A DNA stretch of 64,000 nt from Marispirochaeta sp. (GTDB lineage Bacteria > Spirochaetota > Spirochaetia > JC444 > Marispirochaetaceae). The position numbers and the translations under genes are program-made. The stretch lies in contig CAXXFF010000003.1 of assembly GCA_963676835.2 (NCBI GenBank), positions 32,001 to 96,000 of the forward strand, given 5' to 3'. Numbering within the stretch: position 1 is the first letter of the stretch; each line of letters opens with the position of its first letter. The notes beneath the pieces were generated by a model. That model saw nothing but the letters and a program-made list of their open reading frames with translations, did not search any database and was not told the DNA's origin. Below are positions 44,815 to 51,464 of this stretch, in pieces.

Positions 44815-45759
44815 ATGGAAAAACTTTCCCGCCTGGATTCAGATTCAGAGCTCCGCAAAAAGATCCTTCCCTACTGTCGTCTCAAGACAGGTGAAATCTG
44901 GGAAGATAAGATAAACGGTCACAGAGTCGGTACAGGCGATGTCCGGGACCATGACGTTACCTCCAATCTGTTTGACGGCAGAAAGGCCGACCTGTTTCTC
45001 AATGACCCACCCTATAATATCAGTGTAGGCAGCAGAAATACCGATGCCCTGTCGCAATACTCTGTTGAACAATATATTGAGTTTACACGGGACTGGTTAA
45101 ATTCCACCCTTATCTATCTTAACGATCATGCCCACTTTTATTTATGGACAGGCGCAGATCAGCGTGCAGGGTTCCAGCCTCTCCCGGAACTGATGCTTCT
45201 CATGAGGGAATATCCCCAACTTACCAGCAGAAGCTTTATTACAATGCGTAATCAGCGGGGATACGGAACTCAGAATAACTGGATGAGTGTACGACAGGAA
45301 CTTCTGTATTATATAAAAGGGAACCCGGGGTTCGATGTCCGCTATACGGATATCCCCAAAATTCTCAAAGGTTATTACAAGACAGTGTCCGGTAAAAGAA
45401 CAGAAAACATGGAACGCAGTAAAAGTGACTGCATAAGGCCGGGGAACGTATGGGTAGATATACAGCAGGTATTTTACCGGATGAAGGAAAATGTCCCCGG
45501 AGCGTATGCACAAAAACCGTTAAAAGCCGCTCTTCGCATCCTGGATGCATGCAGCTTAGGCCCAGGATCGATAACAGCCGACTTTTTCAGCCATTCAGGA
45601 ACCAGCCTGATAGCTGCCGAACAGAAAGGTCTTCAGTGCTTCACCATGGACATTGATCCGGTTTTTGCCGAATTATCCATCCGCCGTCTTGAACATTTCC
45701 GGAAAACCGGAGAACCCGGCTGGCAGACAGAATCTCCTTTTCCGGAAATATTCCCCTGA
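44815..45759 (+). CDS. Beta-class N6A/N4C DNA methyltransferase, orphan
   Basis: DPPYN (motif IV) precedes QKP and DFFSHSGT (motif I). Confidence 0.85.
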   Translation: MEKLSRLDSDSELRKKILPYCRLKTGEIWEDKINGHRVGTGDVRDHDVTSNLFDGRKADLFLNDPPYNISVGSRNTDALSQYSVEQYIEFTRDWLNSTLIYLNDHAHFYLWTGADQRAGFQPLPELMLLMREYPQLTSRSFITMRNQRGYGTQNNWMSVRQELLYYIKGNPGFDVRYTDIPKILKGYYKTVSGKRTENMERSKSDCIRPGNVWVDIQQVFYRMKENVPGAYAQKPLKAALRILDACSLGPGSITADFFSHSGTSLIAAEQKGLQCFTMDIDPVFAELSIRRLEHFRKTGEPGWQTESPFPEIFP

Positions 45760-45838
45760 TACTCATCCATCCTGTAATCACCTTTACGACCGTTAACCCT
45801 AATACAGTAAAAATGTAATAAAACCTAAACAATTGCGA

Positions 45839-45917
45839 TTGCTACCCGATATATAGTGTGTTAAGATAGCTGAAAGATCAAACAAGGCACTATATATAAC
45901 GGCCCTACATATAGCGT
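45839..45917 (+). promoter_or_regulatory. nrd operon promoter with NrdR boxes
   Basis: TTGCTA (45839)-17 bp-TAAGAT (45862); boxes ACCCGATATATAGTGT (45844), GCACTATATATAACGG (45887) and GCCCTACATATAGCGT (45902) resemble ACACWATATATWGTGT. Confidence 0.78.
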
Positions 45918-45957
45918 GTATTATGCCAGGTTAAATAATTTCTTTGTTGGTAGGAAA

Positions 45958-46413
45958 ATGCGTTGTCCCCATTGTCAGGAAACAGAAGATAAGGTTATAG
46001 AGTCCAGACAGAATGCCAGCGGAACCTCAATCCGTCGACGCCGTGAGTGTACCGGTTGCGGGTACAGATTCACCTCCTATGAGAGGATAGAAGAAAAACC
46101 GCTCATGGTGATAAAACGGGACGGCCGCAGGGAACCCTTTTCCATAGAAAAAATTGAAGAAGGAATTCAGCGCTCATTGCAGAAACGTCCGGTTTCCCAA
46201 AAGCAGGTAGAAGATTTACTCCATGCAATTGAAGATGAAGCAGTACTGCTTGCCCGGAACAGCCGGGAGATCAAAGCCGAGAACATCGGCGATCTGGTGT
46301 TGCGTAAACTTTATGAACTGGATGGTGTAGCTTATGTCCGTTTTGCATCAGTATACCGCATGTTTGACAATGTAGGTGAATTTATCAACGAAATAGAAAA
46401 ACTGTCCCGATAG
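45958..46413 (+). CDS. nrdR: Transcriptional repressor NrdR
   Basis: MRCPHC...IRRRRECTGCGYRFTSYE, ATP cone, VAYVRFASVYR. Confidence 0.97.
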   Translation: MRCPHCQETEDKVIESRQNASGTSIRRRRECTGCGYRFTSYERIEEKPLMVIKRDGRREPFSIEKIEEGIQRSLQKRPVSQKQVEDLLHAIEDEAVLLARNSREIKAENIGDLVLRKLYELDGVAYVRFASVYRMFDNVGEFINEIEKLSR

Positions 46414-46467
46414 TCGGGGAAAACATAATAGAACCTGTATAGAAGGAACTGGGAGGGGAACTTTTTT

Positions 46468-48573
46468 ATGTCCGAAAACAGCTGGAAAGATTTTTTAAAA
46501 GAACATCATTCTGTCAGCCAGGAAGGGCCGGTACGACAGGTGGTCAAACGGGACGGCGAAACAGAAAGCTACGACCGCTGGCGTATTGCATCAGCTGTCA
46601 GCCGGGCTGTAAATGCAGCCCGGGACACGGATGATCAGGCGCTGGTAGAGGTTCTTACCTCCAAGGTAGAACGGCGCCTGCTTGAGTTCATGCAGTCCCG
46701 TCACCCCAATAGTGCCCCTGCGGTGGAAGAGATTCAGGATCTGGTGGAAAATGTTCTTATCGACAGCGGCGAAAGCGATATTGCCAAGAAATATATTATC
46801 TACCGCGCCCGGCATGAGGTCATGCGGGATACAAAAAAACTTATGGTTGATATCAACTCAACCATGGACGGTTACCTCAGCCAGTCAGACTGGCGGGTTA
46901 ATGAGAACGCCAATGTAAATTTTTCCCTTGGCGGACTTATCCTGCATAATTCCGGAACCATAACGGCAAACTACTGGCTTAAAAACATCTACCCCGAAGA
47001 AATTGCAGATGCCCATAGAAAAGCCGACTTTCATATTCATGATCTCTCAATGTTTTCCGGCTACTGTGCCGGCTGGTCCTTAAGACAGCTTATTCAGGAA
47101 GGTCTTGGCGGAGTACCCGATAAGATCACCTCAACTCCGGCAAAACATCTTTCCACCCTTATCCAGCAGGTGGTTAACTTCCTCGGCATTATGCAGAATG
47201 AGTGGGCAGGCGCTCAGGCACTTTCAAGCTTTGATACCTACCTTGCTCCTTTTGTAAAAGTGGACAATCTCCAGGAGGAAGAGGTAAAACAGGCTATTCA
47301 GAGTTTTGTCTTCGGCGTAAACACCCCCTCGCGCTGGGGAAGCCAGGCACCTTTTACCAACATAACCCTGGACTGGACAGTACCTCCGGACCTTGCGGAC
47401 AAAAAAGCTCTTGTCGGCGGCGAAGAGATGAAGTTCACCTACGGAGAGTGTCAGGAAGAGATGGACCTTATCAACAAGGTCTTTATTCAGCTAATGCTTG
47501 ATGGCGATGCAAACGGAAGGGGATTTCAGTATCCCATTCCAACCTATAACATCACCAGAGATTTCGGATGGGACAGCCCAAATGCGGATCTGTTGTTTAC
47601 CATGACCGCAAAGTACGGTACCCCCTATTTTCAGAACTTTATCAACTCCGACCTGGATCCCGGCGATGTACGTTCCATGTGCTGCCGGCTGCAGCTGGAT
47701 AAGCGGGAACTGCGAAAACGCGGCGGCGGGCTTTTCGGCTCAGATGAGTTTACCGGCTCTATCGGGGTTGTTACGGTCAATCTGCCAAGAATCGGTTACC
47801 TTTCCCGTGATAAGGGGGAGTTCTACCGCAGACTTTCGCGGATGATGGATCTGGCTGCGGAATCTCTCACCATTAAACGAAAGGTGATAAACCGCCTCAT
47901 GGAAGGAGGGCTCTTCCCCTACACCATGAGGTACCTGAAACACCTCAATAACCATTTCTCCACCATTGGCATCTGCGGTATGAACGAATGCCTTAAGAAC
48001 TTCATGGGTGTGGATATTACCACCATGGAAGGAAAACAGTTTGCCATTGAAATTCTTGATTTTATGAGAGACCGCCTTGCTGATTATCAGGAACGTACAG
48101 GCGATCTGTTTAACCTGGAGGCAACCCCCGCAGAGAGCACCAGCTACCGCCTGGCCAAGCATGACAAAGAACATTATCCCAATATTATTACCGGCGGTCA
48201 GGAAGAGGTCTATTATACAAACTCAACCCAGCTCCCGGTTGAATATACAGAAGATGTATTCGAAGCCCTTGACCACCAGGATGACCTGCAGACCCGCTAT
48301 ACCGGAGGAACCGTTTTCCATGGCCTCGTAGGCGAAGCAATAGAAGATACAGAATCCTGTAAAAACCTGGTGAAGGCAGTTGCCAGTAATTACCGGCTGC
48401 CCTACTTTACCATAACACCAACCTTCTCTATCTGTCCGGTACATGGATACCTGTCGGGTGAACATTTCGACTGCCCGAAATGCAGAGAGGAAGAAGAAAT
48501 ACGGCTGAAAACAGAGATCAATAACCTCAAAGCCCTGAAAAAAGAGCTGCAGTCTCAGGCTGCCCCTGTATAA
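46468..48573 (+). CDS. nrdD: Class III ribonucleotide reductase large chain lacking the glycyl-radical loop
   Basis: ATP cone (VVKRDG), ENAN, HIHDL, YCAGW, SMCCRL, EATPAES, YTGGT, CPVHG...CPKC; no RxxGY motif. Confidence 0.93.
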   Translation: MSENSWKDFLKEHHSVSQEGPVRQVVKRDGETESYDRWRIASAVSRAVNAARDTDDQALVEVLTSKVERRLLEFMQSRHPNSAPAVEEIQDLVENVLIDSGESDIAKKYIIYRARHEVMRDTKKLMVDINSTMDGYLSQSDWRVNENANVNFSLGGLILHNSGTITANYWLKNIYPEEIADAHRKADFHIHDLSMFSGYCAGWSLRQLIQEGLGGVPDKITSTPAKHLSTLIQQVVNFLGIMQNEWAGAQALSSFDTYLAPFVKVDNLQEEEVKQAIQSFVFGVNTPSRWGSQAPFTNITLDWTVPPDLADKKALVGGEEMKFTYGECQEEMDLINKVFIQLMLDGDANGRGFQYPIPTYNITRDFGWDSPNADLLFTMTAKYGTPYFQNFINSDLDPGDVRSMCCRLQLDKRELRKRGGGLFGSDEFTGSIGVVTVNLPRIGYLSRDKGEFYRRLSRMMDLAAESLTIKRKVINRLMEGGLFPYTMRYLKHLNNHFSTIGICGMNECLKNFMGVDITTMEGKQFAIEILDFMRDRLADYQERTGDLFNLEATPAESTSYRLAKHDKEHYPNIITGGQEEVYYTNSTQLPVEYTEDVFEALDHQDDLQTRYTGGTVFHGLVGEAIEDTESCKNLVKAVASNYRLPYFTITPTFSICPVHGYLSGEHFDCPKCREEEEIRLKTEINNLKALKKELQSQAAPV

Positions 48574-48603
48574 ACGAAACGGTTTAAAGAAAGGACGGAA
48601 AGA

Positions 48604-49128
48604 ATGAAGAAAACAGAAATGACCATCAGCGACGTGGAAAAGAAACTCGAAGAACTTACCATGAACCTCAAGAATGTCCGGGGAAGAACAACTGAAGTCT
48701 ACACACGGATAGTAGGTTATTACCGTTCAGTGAAAAACTGGAACCGGGGTAAACGGGAAGAATACGATTACAGAACTCCCTATAATGTTCCCGCAGATAT
48801 GCCCAAAGCAGAAATGAAGAGGTCCGCAGATGCGTTTAGTGCTGACACTGCAGCTTCACCGGAAACCTCCGGCATTGCCAGCTACCAGTATTTTTTCCGC
48901 ACAACCTGCCCTAACTGTCCGCCGGTAAAAAGTTACCTCAGCGAGCTGGGCTTCAGCGGCAATGAAATTAATGTTGATATGGAAGAAGGCTACAGCCTGG
49001 CCGGAAATCTTGCAGTCTGCGCTACTCCGACTGTTATCTTCAGGGATGTCAGGGGAGATGAAATATTCCGGGCTTCCAACCTTCAGGATTTAATCAAATC
49101 CTTTGAAAAAGAACAGGCTGCGGTTTAA
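48604..49128 (+). CDS. Stand-alone NrdD glycyl-radical domain fused to a glutaredoxin/thioredoxin-like domain
   Basis: EVYTRIVGYYRSVKNWNRGKREE (Gly38); C-terminal CPNC and TPT redoxin motifs. Confidence 0.88.
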   Translation: MKKTEMTISDVEKKLEELTMNLKNVRGRTTEVYTRIVGYYRSVKNWNRGKREEYDYRTPYNVPADMPKAEMKRSADAFSADTAASPETSGIASYQYFFRTTCPNCPPVKSYLSELGFSGNEINVDMEEGYSLAGNLAVCATPTVIFRDVRGDEIFRASNLQDLIKSFEKEQAAV

Positions 49129-49130
49129 GT

Positions 49131-49832
49131 CTGAACTGGGGCCTTATAAAAACATCTCTTTTAGATTATCCCGGCAAGGTAGCTGCAGTCCTGTTCACCC
49201 GGGGCTGCAATTACCGCTGCCCCTTCTGTCATAATCCGGAACTCGTAACAGGACCGGAACCATCAGATTTTCTCACCAGGCAAGAAGTTCTCTCATATCT
49301 GACAAAGCGTCGAAATGTCCTTGGCGGCGTCTCCATTACAGGAGGCGAACCGCTGATGCATGAGGAGACACTTTCAATGATCGAGAGCATCCATGCCCTG
49401 GGACTGCCGGTAAAGCTTGACACTAACGGCTCCTTTCCTGAAAGGCTTACTGAAAGCGGTGCCGATTATTTTGCCATGGATATTAAGACAGCCTTCTCAC
49501 GATATGCATCCGTGCTGAATGAAAATGCGGATATTGAAGCATCTGTAGATAAAGTAAAGCAGTCTATCAGACTTATCCTGAAATCCGGTACTCCTCACCA
49601 GTTTCGTACCACCATGGTTCCGGGAATTGTTGGTCCGGAAGATTTTAATGAGATTATTCCCTCGGTAAAAGGTGCATATTCCTATCTGCTTTCAGGGTTC
49701 AGACCGGGGAACACCCTGGATACAAATTTCAGTAATCTTGAACCATATGATGATGCGGTTCTAACCGGAACTGCTGCGATGCTTGAAGGAGCGGGTATAA
49801 AAGTAAAGATTGCATGGAATAAAACAGCTTAG
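49131..49832 (+). CDS. nrdG: Anaerobic RNR activating enzyme (radical SAM), probable CTG start
   Basis: The frame extends 75 codons upstream of the ORF-track ATG and contains KTSLLDYPGKVAAVLFTRGCNYRCPFCHNPEL and SITGGEPL; KLDTNGS and FRTT downstream. Confidence 0.88.
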   Translation: MNWGLIKTSLLDYPGKVAAVLFTRGCNYRCPFCHNPELVTGPEPSDFLTRQEVLSYLTKRRNVLGGVSITGGEPLMHEETLSMIESIHALGLPVKLDTNGSFPERLTESGADYFAMDIKTAFSRYASVLNENADIEASVDKVKQSIRLILKSGTPHQFRTTMVPGIVGPEDFNEIIPSVKGAYSYLLSGFRPGNTLDTNFSNLEPYDDAVLTGTAAMLEGAGIKVKIAWNKTA

Positions 49833-49833
49833 C

Positions 49834-50097
49834 CTATATACCCAGCTTATCTTTCTGTTGAGTATATCTGATCTTGCCGGGTTTCTCTCTACGCCACAGG
49901 GGAAGATCTGCACTCTGAATATAGTCTTCAAGTTTTCTTTTTTCTAGATAGCGTAAATCTACAGCAATATCACCGAAACGCCTTCTGTCCCCACACTGCT
50001 GACGAAGCAGAATGTTCTGAACCTGATGCGGACGTATCTCTTCTATGCGCACCAGATATTCACCGATCTTTTCACCATACTTAAGTGAAGAGTTCAA
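49834..50097 (-). CDS. Stand-alone MshEN-like protein
   Basis: KIGEYLV...ILLRQ and RFGDIAV tandem motifs; TTG start with AGGAGG RBS. Confidence 0.65.
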   Translation of the reverse strand: MNSSLKYGEKIGEYLVRIEEIRPHQVQNILLRQQCGDRRRFGDIAVDLRYLEKRKLEDYIQSADLPLWRREKPGKIRYTQQKDKLGI

Positions 50098-50197
50098 TCA
50101 GGTTCCCCCTCCTAAAAATCTGAGCTGTTCGTATAGCAGTAAAGACGATAGAGGCTTCCCGCTCGTGGGACTCTTAAAAGGTAATGCAGAAATACCT

Positions 50198-51343
50198 TTA
50201 CGTCAAATTTTCCCCGGGATTCGTAAACAGATGGTCAAACTGGGAGTGAAAACGACGGGGGACCATGATTTCCTGAACCGCAGACAGGGCGAAATCATCG
50301 GTCATGCCGGCAATATAATCAATCACAACACTCTTACCTGAGGCCTCTTCACTGCGATAAAGTTCCTGCATTTTGACAAGATATTCGCCAAAACGGGCAG
50401 CAAGAGTATTCCCTTCCCTTGAGTAGCCTGCATAATTATCCTTATGGGAGTCATAAAGATCGATGAGATACTCAAAAAGGGTAAACAGGATACGCCGGAA
50501 GTATCGGTGATACTCGCTGAGCAGTCGGTGCTTGTATATATTGCGGTAATTAAAATTTCTGAATTCCAGCAGAGCTTCATATACTTCGCGGGAAAATCCG
50601 ATACTTCCTGTTCGTAGAGAAGAGCGGATCATATCATTTACCAGGGTATCTATTATTTCACCATTGGATTCGCCGAGGACATCCCCTACGGCATGGGGCA
50701 AATCATCCCTGGATAACATTTTCAGATTAACAGCATCCTCAAAATCACGGCCGATGTAAGCGATTTTATCAGACATCCGCACAATACATCCTTCCCAGGT
50801 GGAGGGATACCGGTTTCTGTTTTCAATTGAGGAAAGATCCTTCAACTCGAAATCCGGGACAATTGCCTGTTCGAACTGCTCACCGCAATGATTTATTATC
50901 CCGTCACGGACGGCATAGGTCAGATTAAGACCTTTTCCTTTATTGGCAAGCTTATCTACAACCCTTAAGGAATATAGTTCATGGGCAAAAGGCTCACCTA
51001 AAAGTTCTTCAACAATTTTTTCTCCCACATGCCCGAAGGGAGTATGCCCGAGGTCATGGCCAAGACCTATAGCCCAGGCCAGATCTGCATCAAGATTAAG
51101 GGAGCGGCAGACCGTTGCTGAAACGCTTGCCACATGCAGGACATGTTCAATGCGGGTACAGATATGATCATTGTCAGGGGTAAAAAAGACCTGCGTTTTA
51201 TGCTTGAGACGCCTGAAAGGGTTTGAATGAATGATGGCGGTGGTATCACGAAAATAGGCACCCCGTATATCATTGTCCCTGGGTCGTATACGTCCGGTAA
51301 GTTCTTCTCTGGTGAGGGTACTGGAAAAAAATAGACTGCTCAT
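50198..51343 (-). CDS. dgt: dGTP triphosphohydrolase (HD family)
   Basis: FRRLKHKTQVF, TRIEH, GHDLGHTPFGHVGE, DYIAGMTDDFA. Confidence 0.9.
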   Translation of the reverse strand: MSSLFFSSTLTREELTGRIRPRDNDIRGAYFRDTTAIIHSNPFRRLKHKTQVFFTPDNDHICTRIEHVLHVASVSATVCRSLNLDADLAWAIGLGHDLGHTPFGHVGEKIVEELLGEPFAHELYSLRVVDKLANKGKGLNLTYAVRDGIINHCGEQFEQAIVPDFELKDLSSIENRNRYPSTWEGCIVRMSDKIAYIGRDFEDAVNLKMLSRDDLPHAVGDVLGESNGEIIDTLVNDMIRSSLRTGSIGFSREVYEALLEFRNFNYRNIYKHRLLSEYHRYFRRILFTLFEYLIDLYDSHKDNYAGYSREGNTLAARFGEYLVKMQELYRSEEASGKSVVIDYIAGMTDDFALSAVQEIMVPRRFHSQFDHLFTNPGENLT

Positions 51344-51464
51344 ACTTACTATAAGTCTGCCTTCCACGGATACCTGCTGTCAAGTTCAACTTGAAATTTA
51401 TATGAGAAAGTTGCATTCCAACTTTTGAATGCTTAAGATAACTGTATGCAGGAGCATCCGTAGT

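Follow-up and report, generated by a model that had tools for sequence, protein, structure and literature searches.

The window analyzed here, a 64,000-nucleotide (nt) stretch of Marispirochaeta sp. DNA (contig CAXXFF010000003.1, positions 32,001 to 96,000 of the forward strand), encodes a class III ribonucleotide reductase (RNR) whose glycyl-radical (Gly) loop lies not on the catalytic chain, NrdD, but on a separate protein of 174 amino acids (aa) encoded by the next gene. Judged from sequence comparisons and structure predictions, this is, with a probability of roughly 75%, an obligately two-chain class III RNR to which the small subunit supplies the Gly loop in trans. The small subunit probably also supplies electrons. 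A two-chain RNR with the radical glycine on the small protein had been proposed in a first-pass annotation made from the sequence alone, and it is supported by split loci in relatives, by the family profiles, by the lack of any other NrdD in the genome, and by a model of the complex. In class III RNRs, and in glycyl-radical enzymes generally, the radical glycine is located at the C-terminus of the catalytic chain, according to the available portions of PMC9669993, PMC9531940, and PMC13450708. In a full-text literature search, with most subscription journals outside its reach and the articles available in part, no description was found of a class III RNR whose glycine loop resides on a distinct subunit. 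The features of the two genes, by position in the window, are as follows.

46468..48573 (+): nrdD body, 701 aa, with ATP-cone, catalytic barrel, zinc site, and C-terminal helix, without the glycyl-radical loop
46537..46818 (+): ATP-cone, aa 24-117 of NrdD (PF03477, E 1.6e-19)
47674..47691 (+): SMCCRL finger-loop motif, NrdD aa 403-408; M404, C405, and C406 invariant
48433..48483 (+): putative metal site C656-x2-H659 ... C669-x2-C672 of NrdD, invariant in 31 NrdD bodies
48484..48570 (+): C-terminal amphipathic helix of NrdD, aa 673-701, a proposed docking helix (conserved heptad hydrophobics; model contacts)
48571..48573 (+): nrdD stop codon TAA, the same in the run X1 contig
48574..48603 (+): 30-nt intergenic spacer with Shine-Dalgarno-like AGGA
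48604..49128 (+): small subunit gene, 174 aa, with helix, Gly loop, linker, and redoxin domain
48619..48678 (+): N-terminal amphipathic helix of the small protein, aa 6-25, a proposed docking helix (helix 8-23 in the model; conserved hydrophobics)
48682..48783 (+): glycyl-radical loop region, small-protein aa 27-60, with Gly38 at 48715-48717 (PF13597 positions 532-562)
48784..48879 (+): variable, low-confidence linker, small-protein aa 61-92, weakly conserved and of varying length (pLDDT 45-58)
48880..49125 (+): thioredoxin-fold domain, small-protein aa 93-174, with CPNC at 48907-48918 and the cis-Pro motif P142-T-V

The NrdD body matches Pfam family PF13597 over positions 1-533 of 562 (E 7e-178; 593 bits against a cut-off of 26.2), NCBIfam PRK08270 over positions 3-657 of 684 (1092 bits; cut-off, 548), and TIGR02487 (489 bits; cut-off, 326). 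Translation of the open reading frame (ORF), Pfam, and NCBIfam bear out the first-pass description of a 701-aa NrdD with an ATP cone and the motifs YCAGW (aa 199-203), SMCCRL (aa 403-408), and CPVHG...CPKC (aa 656-672) but without the RxxGY glycyl-radical loop, which is found in the next gene, likewise in 75 of 75 relatives. By sequence, the first pair of the putative metal site reads Cys/His, not Cys/Cys. The nearest solved structure is the NrdD of T. maritima (E 2e-37), whose ASCCRL aligns with the SMCCRL of the window. In all of 31 NrdD bodies, C200, M404, C405, C406, E551, C656, H659, C669, and C672 are invariant. These bodies share 67-95% identity with the sequence of the window, whereas the small proteins, with 35-75% identity, are far less conserved.

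The missing end of the NrdD profile is recovered in the small protein, the location given for it by the first-pass annotation. Residues 29-60 match the final 31 positions of PF13597 (532-562; E 2e-6, 27.2 bits against a cut-off of 26.2), residues 27-61 match PRK08270 positions 648-682, and codon 38 (48715-48717) within the loop motif RIVGYY is GGT, encoding Gly. At E <= 0.01, Pfam assigns the small protein to PF13597 and PF00462 only, with no other glycyl-radical family. Invariant in 20 of 20 aligned small proteins are G27, RIVGYYR, NWN, C102, P103, C105, and P142-T-V. In an AlphaFold model of the small protein (mean pLDDT, 75.6), aa 33-42 form a beta-hairpin tipped by Gly38, and the hairpin lies within the invariant RIVGYYR...NWN.GK block.

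In the window, nrdD and the small ORF share a common frame, with one TAA (48571-48573) and 10 sense codons between them, exactly as first recorded, and from this layout nonsense mutation, sequencing error, and readthrough had been raised as caveats. The loci of relatives exclude them as the general explanation. A search of 41 related genomes with the small protein gave matches in 30, mostly full-length in open frames of 160-240 aa. Among 20 of the relatives' loci, all 19 with upstream sequence are split, with frame offsets 0, +1, and +2 in 8, 4, and 7 loci, respectively, and with a spacing that ranges from an 8-nt overlap up to 117 nt; the NrdD stop always lies 20-35 residues past its CxxC, and a Shine-Dalgarno-like sequence precedes the ATG or GTG of each small gene. 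A broader set, read by motif anchoring, consisted of the best 80 of 574 confirmed stretches in GTDB species genomes. Five were not evaluable because the NrdD end is missing at a contig edge, and the 80 are the best small-protein matches, so the set is biased towards the split layout; it also overlaps in genomes with the 20-locus set. All 75 evaluable loci, L091 among them, are split, with offsets 0, +1, and +2 in 22, 23, and 30 loci and gaps from -26 to +346 nt (median, 75), and both ATGA-type overlaps and gaps of >100 nt are common. The nrdD stops are TAA in 51, TGA in 20, and TAG in 4 loci, and the start codon of the small gene is ATG in 74, preceded by a Shine-Dalgarno-like sequence, and GTG without such a sequence in the other. 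The genomes that contribute these loci are those of Marispirochaeta, of Treponema (T. pectinovorum ATCC 33768 and Treponema sp. OMZ 840 among them), and of many metagenome-assembled Spirochaetales. In the protein collections, a search at E <= 0.001 gave 730 small homologues (95-305 aa), and a profile of the small protein detected 155 cluster representatives at E <= 1e-30, with lengths of 125-345 aa for the best 150.

The in-frame arrangement of this genome would fit an ordinary one-chain nrdD interrupted at the TAA by a recent nonsense mutation or by an error of assembly, and thus a pseudogene or an artifact, and one-chain relatives with the same domains do exist. However, the 75 split loci with three frame relations, variable gaps, and their own starts exclude mutation or sequencing error in general. 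For the window itself it is also very improbable, as the two genes lie in different frames in the nearest relative, whose NrdD is 95% identical, and the small gene begins with an ATG of its own behind a Shine-Dalgarno-like sequence. A run X1 contig (depth 14.4) spans 48200-49400 with 0 differences to the window, although it may be the source assembly, and a 238-nt contig of run X2 spans 48543-48780 with 1 difference, unlocated. Nearly as improbable is that the two ORFs are joined at translation, by stop readthrough or frameshifting, and that the active enzyme is a single chain. The in-frame layout here would suit this explanation, as would the one-chain relative P0122, which contains both docking helices, is sister to the split locus L030, and thus shows that covalent linkage is tolerated. 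Against it, no single recoding mechanism fits all three offsets together with both overlaps and gaps of >100 nt, and small genes nearly always possess an initiation site of their own. A split caused by an intein or intron was rejected, as Pfam shows no intein or endonuclease domain in either protein; no search was aimed at introns.

Two conserved helices border the break between the chains. In the NrdD tail, hydrophobic residues occur at +8, +12, +15, and +22 past the CxxC in 86-99% of the 75 loci. In the helix of the small protein, conserved hydrophobics are found at aa 8, 11, 15, 18, 22, and 25, with a spacing of 3-4-3-4-3. The complex was predicted from NrdD residues 130-701 and the small protein, with a separate alignment for each. 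The heterodimer model, which had been suggested as a check, places the Gly loop in the barrel with a score of 0.83, compared with 0.00 for the best of 3 controls; the score mark used is reached by 116 of 157 solved complexes and by 2 of 215 mismatched pairs. The runs share >= 87% of contacts, and the partner pLDDT is >= 73. The predicted interface comprises NrdD residues 672-673, 676-677, 680-681, 683-684, 687-688, 690-691, 694-695, and 698 and small-protein residues 6-8, 11-12, 14-15, 18-19, and 21-22, while aa 25-64 of the small protein pack against residues of the barrel. Because residues 28-30 of the small protein touch C669 in the model, we infer that the helices are antiparallel, a hairpin cut at its turn. 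The heptad pattern in the 75 loci and the contact of the helices at the same residues in the model suggest docking by a coiled coil, the contact being a prediction only. This helix-helix contact is the only part of the model that has no counterpart in one-chain NrdD.

In the mechanism we propose, the 701-aa body would provide the ATP-cone, the barrel with its finger-loop cysteines, and the metal site, and the Gly loop would come from the 174-aa partner. Insertion of the Gly hairpin in the barrel, as in one-chain NrdD, would form the first link between the chains, and an antiparallel two-helix coiled coil of the NrdD C-terminal helix and the small-protein N-terminal helix would form the second. 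NrdG would install the radical on Gly38. The redoxin domain and the paired docking helices were absent from the first-pass annotation, and they change the mechanistic picture.

The C-terminal part of the small protein has a thioredoxin fold. In the AlphaFold model it is compact, with pLDDT of >90 across aa 93-170, and it displays the beta-alpha-beta-alpha-beta-beta-alpha fold with a CxxC at the first helix and a cis-Pro loop. A Foldseek search with the small protein matched 141 PDB chains at E <= 0.001, with thioredoxins ranking top. The CxxC is CPNC at aa 102-105 (PF00462, E 6e-5, 23.6 bits against a cut-off of 22.9), and CPNC is present in 69 of 73 further loci. The NrdD2 subtype is defined by a third Cys and a Glu in the part of Aurelius et al. 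2015 (PMC4493059) that was available, in which thioredoxin is reported as the reductant for the N. bacilliformis NrdD. In the NrdD bodies, C200, C405, C406, and E551 are invariant and aligned with T. maritima residues; by alignment, the body thus shows the Cys/Glu pattern of thiol-dependent NrdD2 enzymes. Like the N. bacilliformis NrdD2 (Wei et al. 2014, as cited in the accessible part of PMC4493059), it has a third active-site Cys and a Glu, and here Met404 is invariant as well; unlike in that enzyme, which is described there with free thioredoxin, the redoxin here is tethered to the radical subunit. Because the body has the NrdD2 three-Cys-plus-Glu pattern, the tethered redoxin is most likely a built-in reductant. 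The flexible linker of about 30 residues would tether the CPNC thioredoxin-fold domain to the Gly loop, the redoxin would reduce the active-site disulfide, and one of the genome's unlinked thioredoxin reductases would recharge it. No thioredoxin-reductase-like gene occurs in or beside the nrd operon; elsewhere in the genome there is one thioredoxin reductase (382 bits against a cut-off of 343), with two further paralogues near the cut-off.

It is also conceivable, though unlikely, that the enzyme has two chains but that its redoxin protects or regulates, for example by redox or oxygen sensing or by keeping cysteines reduced before activation, with electrons coming from free thioredoxin or formate. 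The lack of a reductase gene in the operon would agree with such a role, as would two further observations: the redoxin domain (aa 90-174) makes no confident contact with the body in the complex model, and some relatives have small subunits without a redoxin. These are L113 and L114 (genomes G035 and G039), with a docking helix and a Gly loop in about 70 and 96 aa, and in the phylum sample described below the redoxin-less helix-plus-loop form occurs in four genomes of one genus. Against a merely protective or regulatory redoxin stand the invariance of CPxC and the cis-Pro in 20 of 20 small proteins, the retention of CPNC in the further loci, the NrdD2 pattern of the body, and the fusion of the same tail to one-chain NrdD2-type bodies.

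Several of these points weigh against a two-chain enzyme with a built-in reductant. The redoxin-less small subunits show that the split design can do without the redoxin, and the domain has no confident place in the complex model. The success of the Gly-loop part of that model may reflect memory of solved one-chain NrdDs (4COI, 8P23). As both ORFs are in frame here and the check was made on contigs only, a trace of readthrough at the TAA is conceivable in this genome. In addition, the genome encodes a B12-dependent class II RNR, NrdJ (1124 aa; G000:C3:131233-133380, outside the window; PRK06556, 1146 bits against a cut-off of 859), and therefore has two routes to deoxyribonucleotides, so the two-chain NrdD need not be essential in this organism. 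No second NrdD, with or without its own loop, was found in the genome.

A search for longer relatives yielded 46 proteins. Fourteen are ordinary NrdDs of 555-719 aa that have only the Gly loop in common with the small protein, with an 8-residue Zn-to-Gly linker and no redoxin tail. The other 32 (306-886 aa) carry both the Gly loop and a CxxC domain; most are full-length one-chain NrdDs of 728-886 aa, three are fragments (306-591 aa), and where the organism is named, it belongs to Spirochaetota or Margulisiibacteriota. Their Zn-to-Gly linker has 8 residues in 28 cases. Four proteins, P0122, P0134, P0144, and P0125, are one-chain NrdD-redoxin proteins that bear inserts, of 13, 34, 34, and 50 residues among them, and the 50-residue insert of P0122 holds both helices. 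In a tree of 73 NrdD bodies, made by a quick search with 4 fragments of <640 aa left out, the split and fused-redoxin forms fall interleaved into one clade (99% support), and P0122 is sister to L030 with 100% support; the backbone is unresolved and gives no count or direction of split and fusion events, although its starred branches require at least two changes. That one-chain relatives carry the same redoxin tail suggests that the split is derived, a direction that the tree itself does not give. The redoxin tail thus appears to be older than the split, or independent of it. The helical insert appears to accompany the split, and the split and one-chain states appear to interconvert, P0122 being probably a re-fusion.

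The distribution of Gly-loop layouts was examined across 151 genomes sampled evenly from the phylum, 73 of which had a Gly-loop match at E <= 1e-8. The layouts, counted by hand, are the following.

Small gene with helix, loop, and redoxin: 23 genomes of 73
Helix and loop only: 5 genomes of 73
Loop alone in open frames of 50-162 aa: 30 genomes of 73, with 2-3 copies in 8 of these
Long one-chain frames of 710-849 aa: 15 genomes of 73

A small open frame therefore holds the Gly loop in 58 of the 73 genomes, in some of them in 2-3 copies, which indicates that separation of the Gly loop from NrdD is common in the phylum and takes several forms. Six loop-only loci were inspected. In five (L116-L118, L120, and L121), an nrdD of about 690-715 aa is followed by a 54-66-aa Gly-loop gene and then by nrdG; the body has a CPVH...CPYEH site, the small gene reads PVEVYSRVVGYFRP, and there is neither a coiled coil nor a redoxin. 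One of the five nrdD genes is apparently broken. The sixth locus, L119 (G180:C48:8500-16000), consists of a solitary Gly-loop gene of 54 aa, and neither nrdD nor nrdG lies within 3.5 kb of it; its genome has three Gly-loop matches, so this gene may be a spare or mobile copy.

The suggestion of the first-pass annotation that oxygen cleavage would sacrifice the small subunit alone is reasonable. A wider proposal, which we put forward as a tentative one, is that the small subunit is an exchangeable cartridge. NrdG would activate it off the enzyme, and after docking through the coiled coil it would deliver both the radical and reducing equivalents. Following cleavage by O2 at the glycine, only the 19-kDa piece would be replaced and the 80-kDa body would survive, and the separation of the Gly loop would represent a general solution to oxygen damage in class III RNRs that has evolved repeatedly. 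The small open frames that hold the Gly loop in 58 of 73 genomes lend this proposal some support.

The genes that flank the two-chain unit directly are as follows.

45916..46413 (+): nrdR, transcriptional repressor of nrd genes, directly 5' of nrdD (Pfam Zn_ribbon_NrdR, E 1e-18; ATP-cone, E 2e-23)
49131..49832 (+): nrdG activase (TIGR02495 NrdG2), start codon uncertain (CTG at 49131)

NrdG scores 167.6 bits against the TIGR02495 cut-off of 131.15, contains the CxxxCxxC motif, and is encoded next to the small gene. Its reading frame contains no ATG, GTG, or TTG from the upstream in-frame stop (49104-49106) through to codon 76, and the conserved N-terminus GLIKTSLLDYPG starts directly 3' of the TAA of the small gene. 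Translation likely starts at the CTG at 49131 or by coupled re-initiation. The nrdG of the nearest relative (L021) likewise lacks a canonical start, two close relatives have TTG at the position where the window reads TTA, and a canonical start is found within 40 aa in 64 of 66 loci with a recognizable NrdG. A scan of 45700-50300 for promoters and terminators gave counts close to those expected by chance (8 promoter-like sites, 5.6 expected; 4 terminator-like sites, 5.1 expected), and no plus-strand terminator was seen between the nrd genes in this uninformative scan. Neighbors of the operon encode an Lhr helicase, a DNA methylase, an HD-domain phosphohydrolase, and a GGDEF/EAL regulator. The phosphohydrolase gene (50198-51367, minus strand) converges on the nrd operon; its product has an HD_assoc domain and is similar to dGTP triphosphohydrolases, and it may be a neighbor with a role in the deoxynucleoside triphosphate pool.

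GrcA/YfiD is a small glycine-loop protein that serves a large barrel enzyme in trans and has that enzyme's own activase as its activator; GrcA is a spare part for a pyruvate formate-lyase (PFL) that has its own loop. Like it, the small subunit proposed here is a small protein whose glycine loop would act in trans. In contrast to the situation with GrcA, the body here has no loop, which would make the small chain obligatory, and a docking helix and a redoxin are added. The small protein is not a member of GrcA/YfiD, as it has no PFL-type Gly-radical match and no loop-bearing NrdD is encoded in the genome. GrcA/YfiD is listed for PFL in the accessible part of PMC13450708. One-chain NrdD/NrdG systems (T. 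maritima, 4COI/4U3E; Prevotella copri, 8P23; phage T4, 1H78) share with the window the PF13597 fold, the ATP-cone, the finger-loop Cys, the metal site, the RxxGY loop, and an adjacent nrdG. They differ in that the glycine loop here is on a separate polypeptide and is followed by a thioredoxin-fold domain, and in that paired helices of about 25 aa occur at the break in place of the 8-residue linker of one-chain forms. The split class II RNR NrdJa/NrdJb of Pseudomonas aeruginosa (Crona et al. 2015, as cited in PMC9669993) is similar in having an RNR chain in two consecutive genes with a C-terminal, turnover-related part on the second, but, as far as the available text describes it, it belongs to the B12-dependent class, is broken at another point, and has a small chain without a radical-bearing residue. 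In phages, 6 cases of nrdD in two coding pieces are given in the available part of Dwivedi et al. 2013 (PMC3653736); most are attributed there to introns, inteins, or homing endonucleases, with one unexplained fragmentation, and for none of them does that part describe a conserved subunit that combines the Gly loop with a helix and a redoxin.

The reading also bears on annotation, since the NrdD bodies could pass for truncated genes and the small homologues currently carry other names in the protein collections ("glutaredoxin," "thioredoxin," "hypothetical," or a short "anaerobic ribonucleoside-triphosphate reductase"). If the two-chain reading holds, a whole bacterial lineage, cultured Treponema strains included, would use a separate radical subunit that also bears a redoxin. 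This would make testable the access of the activase to a normally buried glycine, the exchange of the radical subunit following oxygen damage, and the electron source of the common "double-cysteine" NrdD enzymes.

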